This document shows, piece after piece, positions 3,108 through 47,569 of a stretch of 64,000 nucleotides of DNA (its first letter is position 1; the number at the start of each line of letters is the position of its first letter). Position numbers and translations under genes: made by a program. The notes beneath the pieces are model-generated. The model saw nothing but the letters and a program-made list of their open reading frames with translations, did not search any database and was not told where the DNA came from. Origin of the DNA: a virus; the IMG/VR virus record IMGVR_UViG_3300005747_000263, positions 10,012 through 74,011 of that record. One strand, given 5' to 3'.

Positions 3108-3335
3108 TTACTTCACTTTCTTGTACGGATTAAAATAGCACCAAGTGTGAGTATTAAGTAAAGTTCTTAATGTTTCAATGCAGTCGTCCTTATCTTTATC
3201 GGTAGGACTAACTGCTCCACTAATTAACCAACTCTTGGTTAAGGATGAAATTAAGTGATAGGCGCGGCGTTGCCAAAAGCGAAACTTATACCCGCACCAT
3301 AAACAATGAGTATGTTTGGGCAATTCAATTTGCAT
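3108..3335 (-). CDS. hypothetical protein, possible Zn-binding (CLWC...HTWC)
   Basis: 75-aa ORF in operon. Confidence 0.5.
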   Translation of the reverse strand: MQIELPKHTHCLWCGYKFRFWQRRAYHLISSLTKSWLISGAVSPTDKDKDDCIETLRTLLNTHTWCYFNPYKKVK

Positions 3336-3422
3336 ATCTTAATCTTCCTCATCGCCTGTGATGAAAGGGATAATGTCAATGACTGGTACTTTATTCATAA
3401 TAAGTATACTCCTGATAATAAT

Positions 3423-3495
3423 TGGGGGCGTAGGGATTCCAACCCTAACTTAATTACAAGCGAAGTGCTATACCAAGCCGCGTTTGGTGGCCCCC
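3423..3495 (-). ncRNA. degenerate tRNA-like element (Thr/UGU-like loop)
   Basis: 73 nt; GGGGGC/GCCCCC-A acceptor-like stem, TAGGG-TTGGAAT-CCCTA T-like arm, GGTATAGCA and CTTGTAA resembling D-arm 3' side and anticodon loop; imperfect anticodon stem, almost no variable loop. Confidence 0.6.
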
Positions 3496-3499
3496 GTAA

Positions 3500-4030
3500 G
3501 GAAATGAAAATAGAGTTTTCTCTCAACTATTGTTATAGCGCTGTTGAGAATATAGGATTACTCTATAAACCTAAGTCAAATAATATACGTTGCATCTTCC
3601 CGATGCTAACTATACTGCATTTTGTGTACCATGTTAATAGTTTAATACCCTTTAACAATATAACGCTTTGCTATCTTTGGTAAAAAGATGCCACTCTTAA
3701 TACTTTATACTCGGTAGCCCCCGAGTCTCAAACACACTTAAATAGTGTGTGGAGAGTGAATAATTGGCGCAAGCGGCTAACTTGACTTAGGCTGATAACA
3801 AAGCGCCTAACTTTGTGTCCGTATCTCAATTAAATAACCCTAGCCAGGACTTTTAAATTTAATCAGACCAATCATTTCATTATATACTCTTTTATGAGCA
3901 ATTATCATCTCACTTAAAGAGTATAATACTTAACACGGTTTGACTCAATGTTAAGCAGAAAAGTGCCCCGACTCTAATCCAGTAATGGCGGTCGAGGACT
4001 TGGGTTTTTATTCGTAATACTTCACAGTAT
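3500..4030 (-). ncRNA. putative large structured ncRNA (B)
   Basis: No minus-strand ORF of 60 aa or more; about nine consecutive hairpins, with G-U pairs favouring the minus strand. Confidence 0.55.
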
Positions 4031-4037
4031 TCTTCTT

Positions 4038-4493
4038 TTAACTGTCGCGGACAGATTGAAGGGCACCCATGTATTCTTGGAACGAATCCATAGAATCAAA
4101 AGTGTCACCTCCGCTCATAAAGCCGAAAACTTCGCCCTTGACATCAATAGTCGCACCGGGCGTTCCATCGGCTTTAAGATACAATTCCGCCGGTAGGGGA
4201 ATTCCATCTTCCGTTGTTTCTTGACGCAATCGACGAATACTTACTTCCGTGTATTCACCTTTCGTTGGGTGCATGACCTGAGTCTTTTGCACCAAACGAA
4301 TGTGGTCGTTTCCGCGAATAAGGCGTTCGGAGAGAACATTACGTTCAATCTTTTGCCGTCCACGGGCTTTCTTTTCCAGATTAACCGCTTGGAATTTACT
4401 ATTATGAATAAATCCCAGAACGGTTCCGCTGGAATCACGGACGATAACATTGTTATCATCAATGATTGCGCCTTCGGGTAGGTTAGAAACCAT
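4038..4493 (-). CDS. hypothetical protein, possibly PC4-like single-stranded nucleic-acid-binding
   Basis: GGAGG RBS; beta-rich HIRLVQK...YTEVSIRRL...GFMSGG.TF then amphipathic C-terminal helix; fold call is pattern-based only. Confidence 0.6.
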   Translation of the reverse strand: MVSNLPEGAIIDDNNVIVRDSSGTVLGFIHNSKFQAVNLEKKARGRQKIERNVLSERLIRGNDHIRLVQKTQVMHPTKGEYTEVSIRRLRQETTEDGIPLPAELYLKADGTPGATIDVKGEVFGFMSGGDTFDSMDSFQEYMGALQSVRDS

Positions 4494-4499
4494 TTTAAT

Positions 4500-5365
4500 C
4501 CTCCATTATCCTTAATAAGAATACTCATGCCGTTAAATACCAAAACAACAACAAACCATGAACATCTACAAACAATACCTTTCCAGGTGACATGAGTAAA
4601 CTTATTAAGTAGGATAGAGGACATAAAGAGAACGATAAGTAGAAACTTACCGTTTAATCCCTTTATGCACGGATGAAGTCAGAGCAAAGACTGTTATTCT
4701 TAAACCCCATACGCCGGGTTTATCCGCTTACCTAAAGGTCCTTTTAATTAGGTAAGAAACGTTTTCAATTTTTATTCACTTAAAGCGCTACTCCTCGCTT
4801 GGTTATAATTAACAAGCAGAACTTTTAGTAAGCAAACGCCAATTTACTTTATTTCTTACCCTCATTAGTGTTATGTAAGGGGAATACATCCCTGCGGCCA
4901 AACTAACGGTACTTATTTACCTTATCGCCGTTGCGTATTTTACGCCTCTAAAATTATCTTCTTACTATACTGAAACATAAAATCCATAAAATGGTTAAGA
5001 TTTCGTAATCACTTTTATATTCCCGACAAGAGAGAATGTCACTTATCACGGAGGCGAATGTATCATTTTTATAGTCCACTACTTAAATGTAATGGACATA
5101 TGTGGCTGTCGATGCACACAATAAAACAAATACCGTACCTTAAGGTATAGTCCAGCAAGGCTGTCCAGATACTTGAATTACATATCGCGTGGCTTACACG
5201 CCTTAACCGAAATACACGGGAAGGGCGACACCTATCCCAAAAATGAACCCCGAGGGATGCATAAATGAAATAGTTATCGCGCCGCCCATCCCGCATATCG
5301 CAGATAAGACGCCACAAGACACCCTATTGGCCGGGATGCCGAAAGGTATATGAACCCCTACGTTA
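4500..5365 (-). ncRNA. putative large structured ncRNA (A)
   Basis: ORF-poor; nested long-range helices (4511-4531 with 4589-4609; 4621-4668; 4751-4760 with 4851-4860), GGAA tetraloop, many G-U pairs; TATA-like element upstream. Confidence 0.6.
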
Positions 5366-5368
5366 GGG

Positions 5369-5400
5369 TTATATAGGGGGCCGGGAACCTACATAAGGGT
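5369..5400 (-). promoter_or_regulatory. archaeal TATA-like promoter candidate for the ncRNA region
   Basis: Minus strand AACCCTTATGTA (5390-5401) and TATATAA (5369-5375); similar to AACCTTTATAC upstream of the 6918 gene. Confidence 0.45.
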
Positions 5401-5760
5401 TGCGCCACTAAATACCTTAACTCGGCCGCCATACATACAAGTAATACGCACTCAGTATCTATACAGTATAATCATAACACCATAATGATACCCTTAAACG
5501 CAACTCATGCTCACTTAAAGAGTAATTACTTCTACTCGGTACGAGTAAAGTAAGTATAATAAATCGAGGATGTAAAGTAAATACAATAAATTTTAGATTG
5601 TAAAGTAAATAACTTAAATGAATACTAATAAAAAAAGACACTCCCCGTATAATTATTCATGTTAGGTAAAGTGGGTAGAGGAGTAATTACCTTAGACTTT
5701 AGTCACAGGGAGTAATTACTATTGTTGGGATGAGGGTTTTTGGGTTAAACACCGAAAACC

Positions 5761-5870
5761 TCAGAATCGCTTTCTAAGGCACTTTCTTTACCCAAAAGGT
5801 AAGGATATACCACTATGTGCGGTAAAGTGTCTAAAAAGGCCGTTTCTGGGCTTCTGAGAGCATTTTAGAG
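5761..5870. repeat. phased ~100-bp element, copy A
   Basis: CAGAATCGCTTTCTAAGGC left arm with ~10.5-bp periodic right arm; related copies at 7851, 27522, 47311. Confidence 0.55.
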
Positions 5871-5907
5871 TAAGGGGGATAAGGTAAGATTGCACTAATG
5901 CGCTGTT

Positions 5908-6918
5908 TTAGTCCTTTTTGGCCGCGATTTGAACGTATTTTTGGACCGGAGCCTTCTTGGAAAGAAGTTTAGTCAAGTCTGTCTTAGGCAGACTAACACT
6001 TTCTCCTTCGGGAAGGTTTCCAATTGTTGGAATACGTCCATCAGCAGTCTTGAACACTTTACTGTTCTTCCGAGGACCATAAACATCATAACTCATGCGG
6101 TTGAAAAGAGACTTAACCTCTTTCTTGGCAAGATGACTAACAGCCTTACTGTTGTAATCATCTTCTTCAATGTGCTTAATCATATTATCAATGACCAAGC
6201 CATTAAAGACAGGTAGATTCGTTTGGACCCCGTTAATAACAGCATTACAGTACCGGAGTTTATTGGCATAATTCAAGAAGTCTGCCTTATCCATGTCTTT
6301 CAAGTTGGCAGGGAAATAACCATCTTTAATGGCTTTCTCCATTGTAAGTCCCAAAACATGATGGGCCACCAAGTCAAGAATCTTAGACACGAAGTAAGGC
6401 GAATAGTGACTTACACCGAGTCCGGCACCGTAAAGTTCTTTGTTCCCTGGAGCGTCTGTAAGAGAAGAAGCCCAGGTCACGCCGTGAATCGTATTAAAAC
6501 GAACGTTGGCGTGTAAATCGCGCTTAGCGACACGGACATTGGACTTAACAGACTTATAGCCGGTTTCATCCTTAAACTTAGACAAGAAGCGCTTCTTAGC
6601 GACATAATCGCTAACAGTCTCGATGACCATGTTTTTCTTATCCATGACACCCGCCTTGATTTCTTCAATAACTTTCAGGTTTTGAGCCATCAAGTAAGAA
6701 GCACAAAGGACCACAGCGTTTTCATACAACCTTTTCAGCGAGGCCGCACTTTGTTGCAGTTTTCCGGCGCTGGTGATTTTAATCTTAGGTTTGGATTGCT
6801 CCACCCAAAGATTAACATCTTTTTCGTGCGCCTTGTTCAGTTCAGCAAAAATGCGAGCATCGCGTGTGTTTTTGACATTAACCTTGTCGGTAATGTTCTT
6901 AAGTTTGTCGTTTTGCAT
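5908..6918 (-). CDS. Lys-rich hypothetical protein (336 aa)
   Basis: Long ORF with GGAG RBS and its own TATA-like element at 7037-7044; no recognised motif. Confidence 0.8.
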   Translation of the reverse strand: MQNDKLKNITDKVNVKNTRDARIFAELNKAHEKDVNLWVEQSKPKIKITSAGKLQQSAASLKRLYENAVVLCASYLMAQNLKVIEEIKAGVMDKKNMVIETVSDYVAKKRFLSKFKDETGYKSVKSNVRVAKRDLHANVRFNTIHGVTWASSLTDAPGNKELYGAGLGVSHYSPYFVSKILDLVAHHVLGLTMEKAIKDGYFPANLKDMDKADFLNYANKLRYCNAVINGVQTNLPVFNGLVIDNMIKHIEEDDYNSKAVSHLAKKEVKSLFNRMSYDVYGPRKNSKVFKTADGRIPTIGNLPEGESVSLPKTDLTKLLSKKAPVQKYVQIAAKKD

Positions 6919-7199
6919 AATCTAATCTCCTTATTTTTGGTAGAGATTTGAATTAAACTATACGGGGAGCGTATCAATCATAAGCACCTATTCGCGCCCA
7001 AAATGCGTTATTGTGCTTATGGTGGGGGAGGGTAAGGTATAAAGGTTAAGGTTGGGCCATCGCGTAAAGCGGAATACCTGCGGCGCGTCCTGCGCTTATT
7101 CGTCTTAATATGGAGTATACCTTGCAACTAGATAAGGCTGTCGATGTCTAATCCGCTTACCCAGAATCGCCGCCGATAACCCGAATAACCCAATTTCGC

Positions 7200-7840
7200 G
7201 GCCCATATGAGTAATTACTCCTGGTATATACTAATATAATACTATACACATACAGTATACACTAACATAATTACTCCCGTGTCCGTATACTAATCAATAT
7301 AATACTATACAATAAGTAATTATACATAATCAAAGTATACCTGTAATATATATAATTATACATAAGAAATAATTAACTTTGATTGGGGTAATTATACGCG
7401 AATCGACAGGTATAATTGACTTTTGAGGTAAATTTAGCACCACAAAGACATACTTATGTCCACCCCCCAAGACAATTACTCCTTACCCCCCAAGGTAATT
7501 TCTCCTTATCTGTCCCTCCAATCCAAGATAATTTATTCTTACTCGGAGTAAAGTTTAAAAAACTTTACGACTCGCAAAGATTTTTAATCTTTGCTCGATA
7601 CGAGTTAGGAGTAATTACCTTTGCTCGGCGACTCTATTGTATTAATAATAAATTTTGGGGCAAGAGTAATTACCTTTGCTCGGCAGGGTGTATTTAAGAT
7701 AAATAAGCGCTACTCGGCAGGAGGGTATTTAATTTAAATAATGAATCCCCAAGCAAAAGTAATTACCTTACCCCCCTAAGGGGGCAGGAAGTTTTATGAT
7801 TAAATGACCGAATTGGTCGGTCAGGAGGAATTACCTTTGG
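7200..7840. repeat. AT-rich region with many GTAATTAC boxes and a 21-bp direct repeat
   Basis: GAGTAATTACCTTTGCTCGGC at 7609-7629 and 7664-7684; further TAATTA(C) boxes near 7210, 7268, 7316, 7387, 7759. Confidence 0.75.
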
Positions 7841-7850
7841 TTCAGACGGT

Positions 7851-7945
7851 CAGAATCGCCGTCTAAGCCACTTCGAGCCTTCAACCCTCCACGGGATAGC
7901 CACCGTGCCGTCGAAGGCCACACGAGGCGCTTTAGGGCCTTTACG
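7851..7945. repeat. phased ~100-bp element, copy B
   Basis: CAGAATCGCCGTCTAAGCC left arm matches copy A. Confidence 0.5.
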
Positions 7946-8201
7946 TTGTACTCGCCCCGCAAGAGTTAATCGAAATACTCTCTACTCGCCGGGGATAAGG
8001 TATTTATAATATATCGGGCGGATTTTTTAAAAAAAATAAATTTAAAATTTATTATAAAAAAAATAAATTTTCACATCGTAAGTAAAATAAATAAATCCTG
8101 ATACCAAAAAAATTTAACCAATAAAATTTATTGGTTAAGAATAATAGATAGGGGGTCGGCCATGGGATCCCATGGGGAAAAGAAGAAGGGGGAAAATGGG
8201 C

Positions 8202-8447
8202 CTAAGATTCTTCAAAGGTCCCTTGGACCGACAGTTCCCCGCCACACCACTTGACGCCGTAGGCGAAGCGGTGGCGGTGGAACCGCCGGCCGCCGGGATT
8301 CTGAGCCGCGCCAGACAAGACGGGTACGGAAGGATGGAGGTTGCACGTTGCGACGGTTGTCATTTGGGCCGCCATTTTACACAACCCTTCCGTCGTCAAG
8401 AAGGAGCCCGCAACGGATAGAATCGGTAGGAACCGATACCCATCCAT
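8202..8447 (-). CDS. hypothetical protein (true start may be downstream)
   Basis: GC-rich ORF followed by a pyrimidine tract. Confidence 0.45.
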   Translation of the reverse strand: MDGYRFLPILSVAGSFLTTEGLCKMAAQMTTVATCNLHPSVPVLSGAAQNPGGRRFHRHRFAYGVKWCGGELSVQGTFEES

Positions 8448-8742
8448 CGGTCGTCACACTTCGCACTTCAACCCATCCCTTAACGAAAGATTCACCGGGA
8501 CGGATGAACCCATAATCGGGATGAACCAAGGAGCCGGTACGACCGACCACTTGGGACAATTCAACACCCAAGTTGGCCAGTTGGTCCGGCACTTTTGCCG
8601 CTTCTTCCTGTGCCCACTTGATTTCGTCGCGCATGAGGGCGTAAACCTCCTTTTGGGTCAAGCCTTCTTGACGGGCAACCCACTTCAATTCGTAGTGTTT
8701 GCGCAGTAGTTTGTAGATTTCGCGTTTGTGCATATTGTTCAA
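8377..8742 (-). CDS. hypothetical protein, possible N-terminal HTH
   Basis: LKWVARQEGLTQKEVYALM resembles helix-turn-helix; GGTGA upstream. Confidence 0.55.
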   Translation of the reverse strand: MNNMHKREIYKLLRKHYELKWVARQEGLTQKEVYALMRDEIKWAQEEAAKVPDQLANLGVELSQVVGRTGSLVHPDYGFIRPGESFVKGWVEVRSVTTDGWVSVPTDSIRCGLLLDDGRVV

Positions 8743-8817
8743 ATCCTGGTCACCGCGCCTTTCCGCGCCTGTCGCGACCGTATGGAGGGAAGAAGGGGAA
8801 AAGGGACCGGAGTCGGT

Positions 8818-9159
8818 CTAAGCGTCCAAGGACAGGCTAAGGAGTGCGTAAGCCTGTTCCTTAGTGTGTCCAGCGTCTTGAAGGGCCGCGATAGCCACTT
8901 CGTGCTGAGCCGCTTTGCGGCTTTCAATGGCCGCTTCTTGAGCGCGGACAAACCGGCCCGCTTCTTCAATCCCGGCACCGAACGCTTCTTGGGCCGCCAT
9001 GAGGAACACGTCTTGAGCCTGTTCCATCAAGTCGTTCGACTTGGAGTAGTCGGCCGCCTTGAAAGCGTCCGAAGCACGGCGAAGAAGGCCCTTGGCGGTT
9101 TCAACAGCCGTGTTTAGGCCGGAGGCGGTGGTTTGTTGTGGTGGTTGGTATTTTGCCAT
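8818..9159 (-). CDS. hypothetical alpha-helical protein
   Basis: 113 aa, Ala-rich; TATA element upstream; hairpin plus pyrimidine tract downstream (8787-8817). Confidence 0.65.
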   Translation of the reverse strand: MAKYQPPQQTTASGLNTAVETAKGLLRRASDAFKAADYSKSNDLMEQAQDVFLMAAQEAFGAGIEEAGRFVRAQEAAIESRKAAQHEVAIAALQDAGHTKEQAYALLSLSLDA

Positions 9160-9221
9160 TTTTGGTTATCCCGCCGGACCGGGTCCCGCCCAGTTCGACA
9201 AAGAAGCCATTATCGCCGATA

Positions 9222-9233
9222 GTATATAACCCT
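9222..9233 (-). promoter_or_regulatory. archaeal TATA box candidate
   Basis: AGGGTTATATAC on the minus strand ~60 nt upstream of the ATG at 9159. Confidence 0.5.
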
Positions 9234-9261
9234 ATACGGTAAGCCCAATACGTCCAGATTT

Positions 9262-9320
9262 CAGTATGGTGCAGTAAGAATCAGCACCATTCAGTACCAT
9301 GCAGAACCATGCAGTATGGG
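9262..9320. repeat. 10-bp tandem repeat (CAG at exact 10-bp spacing, six copies)
   Basis: CAG at 9262, 9272, 9282, 9292, 9302, 9312. Confidence 0.7.
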
Positions 9321-9409
9321 AACCCGTCACTCTGAATCGCCGGACCCGGCGCCGCCGTGGTAAGGTCCATATGCGCCGTCGGGAAAATTGGAATTTTTTT
9401 AGAATCAAA

Positions 9410-9557
9410 TAATTACTCCTGTATCTAAAGATAGAGATAATTACCCCTGTGTCCAGGGACTAAGATAATTACTCCTGTGTCTAAAGACTAAGTTAATTAC
9501 CCCTATGTCCTAGGACGAAGTTAATTACTTCTGTGTCCAGTGTTGGTGGTAATTTTT
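9410..9557. repeat. 28-bp tandem array TAATTACYCCTGT-[palindrome]-TAAG
   Basis: Units start at 9410, 9438, 9466, 9494, 9522 and a degenerate one at 9550. Confidence 0.9.
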
Positions 9558-9653
9558 CCCGCTCGATGGGTAATTATCTTTGCTTGGTGATGGGTTTAAC
9601 GTATTTAAGTGAAGGCTTGGTTTTTGATTCACGATTATTTTTATTGGTAATTT

Positions 9654-10013
9654 ATGGAACTTAAGAAGGTTAGTCTTGGGGGGCACATTTTGTGTCCGGC
9701 GTTTTCGTTTAGCGGGGAGGGTGCTTTGCGGTGCGCGGCGAATTTGGCGCGGTCGTATGGGATTGTTGTTCCTGAGTTTGTTTGTGCGGATGGTGCTGTC
9801 CTTGATTTGTTTTGTGATGGCGAGTTTTTGGTGTTGAATTTTTTGTCGGGGGAGCAATTAATTTTTGGTGACTTAATTTTTGGTCACGAGTTTAATGGTG
9901 ATTTGAATAGGAACATTGATGTTTACTCTTTACTTTTTGGGTCGGGTTTGGCTTTTTCTTTTCTTGATGAGTGTTATGTTTGCGGTGAGGTTAGGGGGAG
10001 GCATTTTAAGTGA
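9654..10013 (+). CDS. hypothetical protein
   Basis: 119 aa, GTGA-coupled to the next ORF; first gene of the plus-strand block. Confidence 0.45.
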   Translation: MELKKVSLGGHILCPAFSFSGEGALRCAANLARSYGIVVPEFVCADGAVLDLFCDGEFLVLNFLSGEQLIFGDLIFGHEFNGDLNRNIDVYSLLFGSGLAFSFLDECYVCGEVRGRHFK

Positions 10014-10622: not shown

Positions 10623-12458
10623 GTGGGTGGTAAGTTGTATGCGGCGGTTCATGATGGCTTCATGTTTGCGAGGCAAGTCAGCGATGCACTTCATAAACTG
10701 GATGCCGTTAATGATGTAACCATGAAGGGGCGCATTAATCGCCTCAAGTTTTTGAATGAGTTGCCCGTCGAAGTTAGGGAGGCGCTCCCTAGCGATGTGC
10801 AGCTTGGTTTGGAATTGAATCCTGACTTGGATACGATGTTCCTTCACCCGGAGGACCCCATGCGGGGCATTGTCGTGTCTTTTGTGGCGCGATACATTGG
10901 TAATCCGTGGAGTAACACGGAAGCGTTTGAACTGAATGACCTTCAATTAAAGATTCTTGTTTATGCACTTAGCAGTCGTTCCCTTGGTGTGCTTGCCCCC
11001 CGTGGTGTCGGAAAGTCAGTTGCTCTTGCACTCGCTGCCCTCATTTGGTGTTTCTTCTGTGCCATTGGGGAAGACGCGTTCATTATTGCTCCTACCACGA
11101 ATCAAACCGACAAAGTGTTTGCATACATTACCGACTTTATTAAAGTCGGAAAGAATAACTTCTTAATGGATGGGGACCCTAACATTGGGTACGAGGGCAT
11201 TGGTAGTATTCGTTTTGGTCAGAAACCCATGATTCACTGGCGACAGGGGTCGAGGTTGAGACCGGCGTGTGCTTCGCGCAACAATAAGGGTGAGACGATA
11301 CGGGGGCAGCAGCCTACGTTTGCGTTGCTGGATGAATCCAGTTACATTCTCGATGACATTTACACGAAGACGTTGAAGAGCGGTTTGGTTAGTAATCGGA
11401 GCGACCACGAGATTCCAATCATTGAATCTGGGACGCCTGACGCGAAGAATCACTTCTACGACTTGTTCCATAACCCGAAGATGTACAAGGAGTACATGAA
11501 GATTCACTTCGATTACGAGGACGGGATTAGGGCGGGGCGGTATACCCGCGAGAACATTGAGAAGATTATTAACGAGACTCCCGGCGGGAAGGAATCCATT
11601 GAGTTCCAATCGGAGTACATGTGTAAGTTCCCAGAGGGTGCCATGTCGTTCTTTAAGAATCTCGAATACACTTTTAGCGGGGAACACATTGAGTCGGCAC
11701 CCCTACCCGGGGTAACATACGTTGCTGGTCTCGACTTGGGTCAGAAGCAGGACAGTACCGTGTTAACTATTGGTCGGTATAGTATTGAGGATGATGGGGA
11801 CCACATTGATGTGGTTTATATTCTCGAATTGAATCCGGTTCAAGAATTGACGTATCCTCAACAGTATGCATTGATTTGTGATGAATTGAATCGGTGGCGG
11901 GTTCAGTCGTGCTGGGTTGACTTTACTGGACCCGGTATTCCCATTTATCAGTCATTGGAGACACTGGTTAGGTCTAGTTGTCCTACCGTGACGTTTATTC
12001 CTTTCAGTTTCCAGTCGAATACTAAGTATCCGAACTTCGAGAAACTGCGTTTGTACTTGCAGAATCGTCCTACGCCGCGCATCCGGTACCCGAAACTGGA
12101 TGATAATCGCGTGATGAATCACCCTAAGTTTAAGGAATTCCAGAAAGCGAAGGGTGAATTCGTGGATATTGTTCAGAAGCGCACGAATAGTGCGAATGAA
12201 AAGAACAAGTGGAAGGTTGAGCCGGCGCGTTCCCGTGGTCACGACGACTACGTAGCGAGTTGCATCTGCCTTTGTCAGGCGATTAATGAGTCGTATTCTG
12301 GTGGCGGAGTGGCAAATGCTGTCGAAAAACAGCGCAATGTTGCACAAAGAAAGGTTTCAAGTGCCTCTGCGACGACGGCCGGGCGCGCTTTAGGCATCCG
12401 AGGAGGCAATAGTATAAATAGGGGAAGAGGGCATAGTAATATATGGAGGAAAGTATAA
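10623..12458 (+). CDS. terL: terminase large subunit
   Basis: Walker A APRGVGKS, IIAPTTNQ, Walker B ALLDES, coupling motif SGTP, EYMCKF, nuclease GLDLG..QDST and HDD. Confidence 0.95.
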   Translation: MGGKLYAAVHDGFMFARQVSDALHKLDAVNDVTMKGRINRLKFLNELPVEVREALPSDVQLGLELNPDLDTMFLHPEDPMRGIVVSFVARYIGNPWSNTEAFELNDLQLKILVYALSSRSLGVLAPRGVGKSVALALAALIWCFFCAIGEDAFIIAPTTNQTDKVFAYITDFIKVGKNNFLMDGDPNIGYEGIGSIRFGQKPMIHWRQGSRLRPACASRNNKGETIRGQQPTFALLDESSYILDDIYTKTLKSGLVSNRSDHEIPIIESGTPDAKNHFYDLFHNPKMYKEYMKIHFDYEDGIRAGRYTRENIEKIINETPGGKESIEFQSEYMCKFPEGAMSFFKNLEYTFSGEHIESAPLPGVTYVAGLDLGQKQDSTVLTIGRYSIEDDGDHIDVVYILELNPVQELTYPQQYALICDELNRWRVQSCWVDFTGPGIPIYQSLETLVRSSCPTVTFIPFSFQSNTKYPNFEKLRLYLQNRPTPRIRYPKLDDNRVMNHPKFKEFQKAKGEFVDIVQKRTNSANEKNKWKVEPARSRGHDDYVASCICLCQAINESYSGGGVANAVEKQRNVAQRKVSSASATTAGRALGIRGGNSINRGRGHSNIWRKV

Positions 12459-13110: not shown

Positions 13111-14334
13111 ATGGCTAAAGATGATTTAGGACAGGCGAAAGGTAAGGTATCTTTTGCCGCAAATGCCTTCTCTGGTGGACAGCGAACAGGCATCGCCGTT
13201 GAGCCTATTGGCGACCTCGACCAGTTTTTGAAACTGTACGTCACCACTAAGCAAATCCAGAAACTCATTGACTTCAAAACGAATTACATCGTCAAGGACG
13301 GGTACTTCATTAGTAGTCGAGACGAGGAAGGTAAGGCAAAGGCTGAAGAGTTCTTCAACACCCTGCCAATCCTAGATATCATTCGTAGCTGGTCTAAATT
13401 CTCAATGGTATATGGCGCCGGGTACTTGGAGTATACGGGGAACAATCTAGTCCCCCGTGACTCCCGTGCCATTGTCCCATATATCGATGAAGAGGGTAAT
13501 GGAGAAATTCTCCAGTACGTTCAAGAACTCGGTAATAACGAATCGGAATACCCCGAGTTTGACCCAGAAGACATGCTTGTTCTTCTAAACAATCCAATCG
13601 ACCATATTCGCGGCTTAAGTGAATTACTCGGTATCGAAGAGATTACTAATCTCGACTACCAAGCCATGGAAGATATCAGTGCTACCCTGAATAGGTCGGC
13701 GTATAACCGCACTATTTACAAGGTTGGCACACACGAACGCCCCGTTAGCTTAGAAAGCGATACGTTTATTAACACGCGAGACGCTATCGAGGGACTTCGC
13801 CCCGGTGAAGACTTAGTTGTCAACAGCGATGTTGAAGCTAAACCTCTCGACAATGCGCGTGTAGGAATGGATTACAAGGCATACATGGACCTCATTAATG
13901 AGCGCATGTGCATGTTCCTTGGCGTCCCCTTCGACGTATTCTTCGGTAGTGGTAGTGGAGATACCATTACTCAGCGTCGATTACTTTTCGAGGAGGCAGA
14001 AATCATGCCTCGTCGAAGACAACTCGAAGACTTAATCAATCGGGAGTTAATCCCACGCATTGTTACTGTCAACCCTGAAGAACCAGTTGAGTTTAAATTC
14101 GGAGACATTAACATTGAAATGGCATTCATCCAGTCCAAGAGAGACTTGGTTGAACTCCAAACCGGCTCTAAGACTGCGGACGAACACCGCATCGAAAAAG
14201 GTCGAGACCCCCTCGGTGATGCAGCCGTACCGGGCAACACTAATCAACAAATTCCAATCTCTTCAAGAGATGAAACCGCAACCAGCACTATTGGTGGAAA
14301 CCTAACTGGTCAACGTGATTCCCCTGAACAGTAA
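13111..14334 (+). CDS. portal protein
   Basis: Position after TerL; VYGAGYLE, RGLSEL, LGVP, I.PRRRQLEDLINRELI, TADEHR..G.DPL portal-like motifs. Confidence 0.88.
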   Translation: MAKDDLGQAKGKVSFAANAFSGGQRTGIAVEPIGDLDQFLKLYVTTKQIQKLIDFKTNYIVKDGYFISSRDEEGKAKAEEFFNTLPILDIIRSWSKFSMVYGAGYLEYTGNNLVPRDSRAIVPYIDEEGNGEILQYVQELGNNESEYPEFDPEDMLVLLNNPIDHIRGLSELLGIEEITNLDYQAMEDISATLNRSAYNRTIYKVGTHERPVSLESDTFINTRDAIEGLRPGEDLVVNSDVEAKPLDNARVGMDYKAYMDLINERMCMFLGVPFDVFFGSGSGDTITQRRLLFEEAEIMPRRRQLEDLINRELIPRIVTVNPEEPVEFKFGDINIEMAFIQSKRDLVELQTGSKTADEHRIEKGRDPLGDAAVPGNTNQQIPISSRDETATSTIGGNLTGQRDSPEQ

Positions 14335-15991: not shown

Positions 15992-16948
15992 ATGGTTAAA
16001 GGTATGCACACAGAAGCAGATTACGATGAATTCCTTCAAGAAGTCATTGCCCCTGCTGTAGAAGATTTCAAAATTACGAACGCCGATGCTCTCATCGGCC
16101 TCATGACTTTCCGTCACCCCATCACTCCCGGTCGCGATGGCTTTAAGATTCCGGTCTTGAAGCGCGGCGATGACGTTGTTCAACGTCTCGGCGAGTTTGG
16201 TCGTGCCGCGTACATGAAGAGTGACCGCGATGAACTCGAATTCGCCGCTGAACGCTACGGTATTTCCGTCGCATTCACCGAAGATGCCCTAGCTCGCGCT
16301 CTCGATGAAGGCGTTGTGGACCCCATCCAGAACGAACTCCGCCATGCTCGTCTCTTAATGAGCGACAAGTACGGCGCAACCATCAAAACCCCCGTCATTT
16401 CTGGCTGGGGTGACGCCGAGGATGCTCCCAAGTACGCCGACCGCACGTTTGCCAACCACAGCCACCTGATTAACGACGGTGGCACTGGTGACGGTGACCT
16501 GCAAGGCGATGCCCAGCATTTCCCTGAGAATGCCGCCAACACTGACGAAGTTCTTCGTCTCTCCACGATTCGTGGAGCCAAGAGCCACGTTAGCGAACAC
16601 GGCCAAGCCCCTGACACCATGATTGTCAGCGACTTCGGTCTCAACGACATTCTTACCCTGCTCGAAACCCAAGGTGTCGGTAGCCCACTGCTCCCTGCCA
16701 CCATTGAGGGCAGTGTCGGTCGTCTCTACGGTATGAACATTTTCGTCACTCCCTGGATGAATGACAACACGTTCGTTATCGTTGACAGTCGTCAAAAACC
16801 CATTGTGTTCGGTGAACGCGAGTCCCTAGAACTCCGCACGGAACGCAACCTGCTTGAGCGCAAGTGGGATGGTCAAATGATGGCTGCGTGGGTGTTCGGT
16901 ATGGTCCACAAGTGGGCCGGTATCGCTGTCACCTACGACTCTCCGTAA
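15992..16948 (+). CDS. major capsid protein (HK97 fold)
   Basis: Position; RYG.SV.FT.DAL, PDTMIVS, GRLYGMNIFVTPWM; strong codon bias; terminator follows. Confidence 0.88.
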   Translation: MVKGMHTEADYDEFLQEVIAPAVEDFKITNADALIGLMTFRHPITPGRDGFKIPVLKRGDDVVQRLGEFGRAAYMKSDRDELEFAAERYGISVAFTEDALARALDEGVVDPIQNELRHARLLMSDKYGATIKTPVISGWGDAEDAPKYADRTFANHSHLINDGGTGDGDLQGDAQHFPENAANTDEVLRLSTIRGAKSHVSEHGQAPDTMIVSDFGLNDILTLLETQGVGSPLLPATIEGSVGRLYGMNIFVTPWMNDNTFVIVDSRQKPIVFGERESLELRTERNLLERKWDGQMMAAWVFGMVHKWAGIAVTYDSP

Positions 16949-16960
16949 GACTAAAAAATT

Positions 16961-17004
16961 AGGAGCTTAAAACACTCCTTTTCCTTTTCCCTTTCTCCCT
17001 TTTT
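16961..17004 (+). terminator. hairpin plus pyrimidine tract after the MCP
   Basis: AGGAG...CTCCT then TTTCCTTTTCCCTTTCTCCCTTTTT. Confidence 0.65.
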
Positions 17005-17032
17005 ATACCCCTTACGTTGAGAGTGACTTAGC

Positions 17033-27486: not shown

Positions 27487-27524
27487 TACTGGTCATCCAG
27501 TATTCCCTTTTCCCTTCCTTCTCT
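27485..27524 (+). terminator. hairpin plus pyrimidine tract
   Basis: AATACTGG-TCAT-CCAGTATT then CCCTTTTCCCTTCCTTCTCT. Confidence 0.65.
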
Positions 27525-27640
27525 CAGAAGGCGTTTAAACGCCGTCTAACGGGATATCTTTTTTTCCCTACCCACGGGGTCCCGTGTGGGTATTAATGCG
27601 CTTAGACGCAGGATATGGGGCCTTAGAATCGATTAAAACG
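27522..27640. repeat. phased ~100-bp element, copy C
   Basis: AAACGCCGTCTAAC ... CTTAGAC ... GGGGCCTTAGAATCGATT. Confidence 0.55.
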
Positions 27641-47414: not shown

Positions 47415-47569
47415 CACAATAGTTGTGCCCCAGTTTCGGCTGTAAACCGATTTAGGGCGGAATTGGCCGCCACATTCACACTCAGGCCCAAGGGAGGAGT
47501 TCCTCCGCACTCCCTTGGGTCCCCAGTGTGCGCGCCCCTAGTATACTATACACTATACTACGTATAGTA

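Follow-up and report, generated by a model that had tools for sequence, protein, structure and literature searches.

The 64,000-nt window analysed here, bases 10012-74011 of the 74,011-bp IMG/VR virus record IMGVR_UViG_3300005747_000263, carries on its minus strand a gene for a 151-amino-acid protein (open reading frame (ORF) 151, ORF151) that is set into a non-coding region with predicted strand-specific RNA hairpins. All coordinates below are those of the window. We tentatively read the ~900 nt upstream of ORF151 as a long, structured 5′ leader or processing region of the ORF151 mRNA, belonging to an early leftward transcript, and give this model-based reading somewhat less than an even chance. 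An earlier note on this DNA had proposed, for positions 3423-5400, a promoter, a large RNA (“RNA A”), a small PC4-like gene, a second large RNA (“RNA B”) and a tRNA mimic. Its observations are confirmed in part and its interpretation is partly supported: the second option of that note, a single long RNA into which an ORF is embedded, amounts to a long structured leader and fits better than two stand-alone ornate RNAs.

The leader would have three main parts, namely a 52-bp rod (5190-5321), a 20-bp hairpin (4621-4668) and a helix (4500-4620) that buries the Shine-Dalgarno sequence of ORF151. Translation would start only once a protein, an alternative RNA fold or a nuclease specific for double strands has opened or cut this helix. 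The ORF151 message would then end at a U-run hairpin (3951-4001), the ~450 nt after this terminator would be ordinary non-coding spacer, and a decayed tRNA gene would close the unit, either as a pseudogene or as a retained cutting signal for RNase P and tRNase Z before the next gene cluster. The ends of the transcript, the role in regulation and processing of any kind are inferred.

Strand-specific hairpins upstream of ORF151

All RNA structures described here are thermodynamic predictions at 37 °C, and fold z-scores refer to dinucleotide-shuffled sequences (200 shuffles for targeted folds; the local scan used a 120-nt sliding window). Along the minus strand, the leader and the start of the gene contain the following elements:

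5190-5321, minus strand: rod hairpin of 132 nt and 52 bp, with helices of 8-11 bp split by single pyrimidine-pyrimidine mismatches
5074-5097, minus strand: small hairpin of 9 bp with an AUUUAA loop that holds one TTTAAGT copy, from the helix list of the minimum free energy (MFE) fold
4743-4869, minus strand: interrupted hairpin of ~40 bp, rich in A-U and G-U pairs (9 G-U); z -3.2 on the minus strand, -1.35 on the plus strand
4621-4668, minus strand: 20-bp hairpin (11 + 9 bp), ~130 nt upstream of the ORF151 start, with no U-tract after the full stem
4497-4623, minus strand: long-range helix (7 + 9 + 10 bp) with a G/U-rich loop, 4589-4620 pairing with 4500-4531
4341-4490, minus strand: structured 5′ coding part of ORF151; z -4.3 on the minus strand, -1.7 on the plus strand

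The rod has an MFE of -64.8 kcal/mol and a z-score of -7.15 as minus-strand RNA, with none of 200 shuffles folding as well, and of -1.8 as plus-strand RNA. It ranks second among 4,222 genome windows by composition-adjusted energy, and the MFE structure accounts for 0.23 of the ensemble. The pairs comprise 23 G-C, 17 A-U and 12 G-U, and the five single mismatches are all pyrimidine-pyrimidine, none being A-C. With 12 G-U pairs and no A-C mismatch, the rod therefore pairs only as minus-strand RNA. As far as a predicted fold can tell, this pattern is the best evidence in our analysis for selection at the RNA level.

The 20-bp hairpin, folded as segment 4619-4670, reaches z -8.2 on the minus strand and -3.8 on the plus strand, and a terminator scan flagged its inner stem only. 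The segment around the small 9-bp hairpin (5025-5174) scores -2.4 and -1.1 on the two strands, respectively. In support of a leader, each of the main hairpins is stronger on the minus strand, that is, the coding strand of the neighbouring genes; the strand difference arises because of G-U pairs.

Folded over their whole length, the two proposed large RNAs behave differently against shuffled sequences, a comparison that the earlier note had suggested. “RNA A” (4494-5400) has z-scores of -6.8 (minus) and -3.2 (plus), and on the minus strand thus beats both the shuffles and the genome baseline of -2.6 to -3.0, which we obtained from three 907-nt coding segments folded as sense RNA. “RNA B” (3400-4037) scores -3.4 and -4.8, respectively, which is similar to the controls, not exceptional, and without a preference for the minus strand. 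In the sliding scan, structure is confined to discrete islands and most of the region lies at background level. The description of the region as almost continuously base-paired was overstated, since coding controls already reach the baseline values and the excess consists of discrete hairpins. For “RNA A”, minus-specific structure upstream of ORF151 holds up in the form of discrete rods, not as continuous pairing. “RNA B” does not stand as a large structured RNA: its folding resembles that of the coding controls on either strand, and between it and ORF151 lies a terminator-like hairpin. These results call for caution, as apparent continuous pairing is largely at the level of coding controls and a new large RNA needs more than thermodynamic folding to be established.

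Two coding regions elsewhere in the genome (15400-15529 and 13405-13534) show local structure of z -4.2 to -5.4 on both strands, matching many of the hairpins described here in stability, which is a further caution about the baseline. The GC-rich segments 7056-7203 and 7845-7994 have no excess structure (z about 0).

A predicted helix covers the ribosome-binding site of ORF151

In the long-range helix, CCUCU (4616-4620) pairs with the Shine-Dalgarno sequence GGAGG of ORF151 (4500-4504) from ~115 nt upstream. The two arms form an inverted repeat of 31 nt with 81% complementarity, and the helix scores z -5.9 on the minus strand and -4.7 on the plus strand.

The R sites of the T7 early region and the lambda N leader are structured early-mRNA leaders or RNase III processing hairpins of tailed phages. 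As in those systems, the transcribed strand here has long imperfect hairpins of 20-50 bp in front of early genes or in the gaps separating them, and one predicted helix covers the Shine-Dalgarno sequence, so that cleavage or unfolding could switch on translation. Unlike them, the leader proposed here is far longer, has no sequence similarity to theirs, and may function in an archaeal host; to our knowledge, most archaea lack RNase III.

Several points weigh against a leader. Other windows of this genome, coding ones included, reach z -4 to -5.4, so moderate hairpins are nothing unusual and just the top elements stand out. For a gene of 151 amino acids, 700-900 nt would be an unusual leader length, and the rod does not have to work in cis, given its distance of ~700 nt from the start codon. 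The Shine-Dalgarno helix is nearly as strong on the plus strand (z -4.7) and could thus be an inverted repeat at the DNA level. The leader structures are predictions at 37 °C, and the promoter and the 5′ end of the transcript are putative. If the hairpins are functional, this orphan virus lineage would have an RNA region for control or processing of unusual length and stability; hardly anything has been explored of the non-coding RNA biology of tailed viruses of archaea.

ORF151 is a real gene in an otherwise non-coding region

Downstream of the leader, the unit continues with these features:

4038-4493, minus strand: ORF151, gene of a 151-amino-acid orphan protein, with positive coding potential and a GGAGG ribosome-binding site
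3951-4001 (stem 3961-4001, ~11 bp), minus strand: terminator-like hairpin followed by UUUUCUGCUU, just past the ORF151 stop codon
3496-3950, minus strand: non-coding spacer (“RNA B”) with several small hairpins and negative coding potential, folding like the controls
3423-3495, minus strand: tRNA-like element of 73 nt with a G-C acceptor, a D-like arm, a T stem and a degenerate anticodon arm
3339-3398, minus strand: putative mini-ORF of 19 codons that comes right after the tRNA-like element, has AGGAG as its ribosome-binding site and abuts the start of a 75-amino-acid gene (3108-3335)

The scarcity of ORFs reported earlier is borne out: 3336-5907 is non-coding except for ORF151. The only ORFs of at least 90 amino acids in the stretch are ORF151, an out-of-frame shadow of it and a junk-like plus-strand frame. 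Coding potential was scored with a 3-periodic Markov model for which 28 long genes from this virus served as the training set. The score is negative in all six frames across 3481-3960, 4561-5880, 6901-8160 and 9181-9720, and clearly positive for ORF151, for ORF336 (5908-6918) and for the ORFs of a GC-rich island (8202-9159). In the 125-amino-acid plus-strand frame at 3306-3683, coding support is limited to the first ~100 nt. Reading TAG, TGA or TAA as sense leaves the stretch closed, which disposes of stop-codon recoding. Tiling by tiny ORFs, which the earlier note had named as an outcome that would speak against its own proposal, is contradicted by the six-frame coding scores and the junk-like stop-to-stop translations, and pseudogene frames were rejected on the same grounds.

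The gene-poor zone extends over 6.3 kb (3336-9650), beyond the ~1.4 kb first described, and heads the leftward gene block. Its convincing genes all lie on the minus strand: ORF151, ORF336 and three small ORFs between 8202 and 9159. These three orphan ORFs (81, 121 and 113 amino acids) occupy the GC-rich island, which has 55-59% GC against ~38% for the genome and is probably a foreign insertion; a search of 5.8 billion proteins gave no relative for the product of 121 amino acids.

The embedded gene with a good ribosome-binding site that had been noticed before is confirmed by its GGAGG, its positive coding score and a full-length relative. This relative, P0002, has 153 amino acids, is encoded on a 948-nt Logan contig and shares 41% identity over the full length (E 1.7e-20); it is the only one that an exhaustive HMMER search of 1.84 billion representatives recovered. 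Because of this full-length relative we consider ORF151, judged by sequence, a real gene. Among 5.8 billion clustered proteins, ORF151 matches itself only.

The label “PC4-like”, by contrast, found no support. ORF151 has no Pfam match at E≤0.01 and no PHROG family; the profiles PF02229 (PC4) and PF11680 (the related DUF3276), run at E≤10 against all six frames of the virus, had no hits; and a PDB sequence search with ORF151 returned noise, with no PC4-type chain at E≤10. The AlphaFold model (predicted local distance difference test score, pLDDT, 46) shows two beta-rich segments with a helix after each and is too poor for matching to the beta-beta-beta-beta-alpha fold of PC4-, Whirly- and PUR-like proteins, which bind ssDNA and RNA. 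Foldseek and VIA-align searches with this low-confidence model gave nothing above noise (best Z 3.9), and ESM Atlas lists a DUF3276 cluster for ORF151 at weak TM-scores (template modelling scores) of 0.37/0.54 only. An internal repeat in ORF151 was sought and rejected.

Just past the stop codon, the hairpin at 3961-4001 is followed by UUUUCU, both in the MFE fold and as read from the sequence. We infer that the 3951-4001 hairpin acts as a terminator.

Known RNA families and the possibility of a trans-acting RNA

Across the whole window, Rfam 15 cmscan at gathering thresholds returned tRNA-Leu only, and in E-value mode (E≤5) the segment 2400-9700 gave chance-level matches to snoRNAs and miRNAs only. 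The Rfam check proposed in the earlier note thus yielded no large-RNA family (GOLLD, ROOL, HEARO, OLE, raiA, group I/II introns or 6S, among others). A scan of the window for the RUGAUGA/CUGA pattern found no full C/D/C′/D′ arrangement, and an archaeal C/D-box small RNA was rejected.

The T4 species 1 and 2 RNAs, of 120-140 nt, are co-encoded with a tRNA cluster and cut out by tRNA-processing enzymes. Here, too, structured non-tRNA sequence would share one unit with viral tRNAs and tRNA-like signals. tRNA-like 3′ handles are known from RNAs of the mascRNA type and from mitochondrial tRNA punctuation, and RNase P and tRNase Z recognise the acceptor/T minihelix. In our element the acceptor/T-arm minihelix is likewise intact (6 + 5 bp) and lies at a gene boundary. 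Unlike those handles, it fails the tRNA covariance model and has G in place of C56 in the T loop.

In keeping with the idea of the earlier note, the region might yield one or more stand-alone trans-acting RNAs, with the 132-nt rod or an RNA of ~0.85 kb as the stable product. Such an RNA might pair up with ORF151 or divert a host nuclease or sensor as a decoy; the tRNA-like element would be its 3′ processing handle. The stability and strand specificity of the rod, extreme on a genome-wide scale, are in keeping with this idea, as are the embedding of an orphan protein gene in the region and the distance of ~700 nt between rod and start codon, too large a span for translation to be controlled in a simple way. 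The locus also lies beside viral tRNA genes, and GOLLD and ROOL, the large ornate RNAs of bacteria and phages, often occur near tRNA genes (PMC5737381; 10.1101/2024.12.08.627333). As with GOLLD and ROOL, several hundred nucleotides here are non-coding, structured and strand-specific next to viral tRNA genes. Unlike them, the region matches no Rfam model, and the prediction shows a few simple rods, not a conserved multi-branched architecture; by sequence, it is not a member of either family. A trans-acting RNA is further disfavoured by the lack of any Rfam family even at E≤5, by “RNA B” having no excess structure, and by ORF151 showing no sign of a nucleic-acid-binding family in the Pfam, PHROG, PDB and PF02229/PF11680 searches. 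We regard such an RNA as unlikely. It is still less probable, on these predicted folds, that an apparently archaeal and possibly DPANN-infecting virus makes a stable trans-acting RNA from 4494-5400 that works with ORF151 or as a decoy and carries a tRNA minihelix as its handle. If this were true, the RNA and ORF151 would form a viral RNA-protein module with no described counterpart.

A decayed tRNA gene at the end of the unit

Upon close examination of the tRNA-like element, acceptor pairs 1-6/67-72 are all G-C or C-G and are followed by discriminator A73. The T stem (49-53/61-65) is a perfect 5-bp helix with a 7-nt loop, UUGGAAU, at canonical spacing, and position 56 is G where C56 is conserved. 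Read by hand, positions 27-43 contain no anticodon arm of 5 bp and 7 nt; the best candidate, CUUCG/UUAAG with loop CUUGUAA, is 4 nt off position and has one mismatch. The element is called neither by ARAGORN at default settings nor by the RF00005 model (E≤10, 161-nt search of 3380-3540), and its fold is no better than shuffles (z -0.9). Relaxed ARAGORN settings gave tRNAs with giant introns, which we judged implausible and spurious.

Among 185,579 species genomes, the pattern of the T arm and 3′ acceptor occurs exactly at a single locus, an intron-bearing tRNA-Trp(CCA) in a metagenome-assembled genome (MAG) of Ca. Woesearchaeota. The 3′ 35 nt of the element (T arm, 3′ acceptor and AATT trailer) are 89% identical to this tRNA, and the 5′ two-thirds cannot be aligned. 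Another genome of the same phylum gives a weaker second match to the 3′ end (84% over 32 nt), and viral contigs contain no match to the T-arm pattern. Because its T arm and 3′ acceptor match an archaeal tRNA-Trp gene, the element derives, by sequence, from a tRNA gene that has decayed and of which the acceptor/T minihelix is left. The tRNA-like end seen earlier is thus tRNA-derived; the proposed mimic fold falls, as the tRNA models fail. The matched gene (JAWBMQ010000004.1, 5193-5309) has an intron of ~42 nt in the anticodon-loop region, was missed by default ARAGORN and sits just upstream of a called tRNA-Val.

The element could also be thought of as an attP (phage attachment) site within a tRNA gene. 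We consider this unlikely because no integrase is encoded: the tyrosine integrase profile PF00589 is empty in six frames at E≤1 and was found in all 14 of 14 control genomes.

With its broken anticodon arm and G56, the element resembles a pseudogene, and the entire region might be decaying or neutral DNA in which functionless hairpins accompany a defunct tRNA gene and what is left of other, lost genes. The junk-like translations, the background folding of most of the region and the orphan sequence of the whole zone agree with such decay. Yet it is rare for tailed viruses to retain neutral DNA by the kilobase, genes are packed tightly elsewhere in this genome, no pseudogene-like frame retains residual coding potential, and z-scores of -7 to -8 with a strong G-U strand bias would be unexpected. 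Neutral decay fits the tRNA remnant and the spacer, not the top hairpins, and as an account of the region it is distinctly improbable.

Promoter-like elements and repeat arrays

Two features upstream of the rod are candidates for initiating the ORF151 unit:

5369-5376, minus strand: TATA-like box CTATATAA, ~50 nt upstream of the rod; possible promoter element
5545-5619, minus strand: AT-rich tandem repeats, three units of 27-28 bp (GTAAAGTAARTAYAATAAAT), directly after a run of seven T residues (5630-5636)

The TATA-like box is present where it had been reported, and its role as a promoter is conjectural. CTATATA has five copies in the 74-kb genome, three of them intergenic, and no promoter consensus could be derived from the other intergenic regions of the virus. 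The segment 5545-5636 may combine a terminator with a following promoter or UP-like region that starts the ORF151 unit. TTTAAGT(G) has six minus-strand copies in the 1.9 kb of non-coding DNA at 3736-5618, against 18 genome-wide on both strands. Several copies lie in or next to small hairpin loops (AUUUAA), and the motif may act in a promoter or recur as a motif of the RNA.

Arrays of a motif with the core GGAGTAATTAC lie at 5400-5730, 7200-7850 and 9402-9591. GTAATTA occurs 48 times in the window, with 12 expected, mostly in these arrays. One class is a tandem array with five units of 28 bp (TAATTACYCCTGTGTC..., 9402-9541) next to the divergent early/late switch; the other comprises imperfect palindromes of the GAGTAATTACCTTTGCTCGG type at 5518-5543 and 7577-7848. 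By sequence, the arrays look like iterons or operator sites of a DNA-binding protein. ORF336, an orphan that is predicted to be all-helical (AlphaFold pLDDT 34, too low for annotation by structure) and has no Pfam or PHROG match, is flanked on both sides by GTAATTAC arrays and is a candidate binder of those motifs. Paralogy between the regions upstream of ORF151 and ORF336 was rejected on comparison.

The strongest global fold score belongs to the non-coding segment 7561-8200 (z -8.4). It is driven by inverted GTAATTAC copies together with perfect 9-bp palindromes (GCAAAGATT/AATCTTTGC and GTAAAGTTT/AAACTTTAC), each of which adjoins a CCGAG motif.

If the repeats served as operators or as origin, partition or packaging sites, the region would be a control region at the DNA level and its RNA folds would be by-products. 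The arrays at 5400-5730 and 7200-7850, the five units by the divergent gene switch and the AT-rich tandem repeats suit this explanation, and the inverted repeat at 4499-4621 and the segment 3400-4037 fold about equally on both strands. The motif arrays, however, lie mostly outside 3423-5400, and the hairpins at 5190-5321, 4621-4668 and 4743-4869 need G-U pairs and largely collapse on the plus strand, unlike a DNA palindrome. A DNA-level role is a better fit for the flanking arrays than for the G-U-dependent hairpins, and for the region as a whole we rate it the least probable of the explanations weighed here.

The virus and its genome

The record has 52-bp direct terminal repeats and belongs to a tailed virus, with the large terminase subunit (TerL) at 10623-12458 on the plus strand, the portal at 13111-14334 and the major head protein at 15992-16948. 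A family-B DNA polymerase (PolB), a class II ribonucleotide reductase and a primase-like protein are also encoded. Plus-strand late genes start at 9654, the minus strand codes for all genes from 9159 down to 1, and genes are tightly packed outside the gene-poor zone. Two viral tRNA genes lie at 425-500 and 2452-2534, and the default calls of ARAGORN are tRNA-Arg and tRNA-Leu only.

Relatives of the virus are few. The phage GenBank collection contains no DNA similar to it, and TerL relatives of 49-56% identity are found on Logan contigs (up to 19.8 kb) only. Among viral contigs, an alignment search with TerL reached 33% identity at best, and ORF151, ORF336, TerL and P0002, each used as a single query, found no relatives; a search of genome contigs also returned nothing. 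The metagenome contigs gave a single match, a 2-kb contig that has a TerL of 52% identity, covers only the DNA upstream of TerL and lacks the GTAATTA motif. By sequence, the lineage is an orphan. In 401 genomes from the phylum of the Woesearchaeota MAG, TerL matches lie at only 25-34% identity. There is a distant terminase match to an Altiarchaeum virus; in line with this and with the set of PolB and primase, the tRNA-Trp match gives a thin hint of an archaeal host.

Two further observations concern transcript ends elsewhere in the genome. A GC-rich hairpin (47425-47554; z -4.0 on the minus strand) lies in the convergent gap between the late (plus-strand) and replication (minus-strand) modules and probably terminates transcription from both directions. 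Tracts rich in pyrimidines, for example TTTTCCTTTTCCCTTTCTCCC, follow gene ends at 16949-17010, 27487-27530, 8170-8200 and 8790-8810, and may be a termination signal of the virus or its host.

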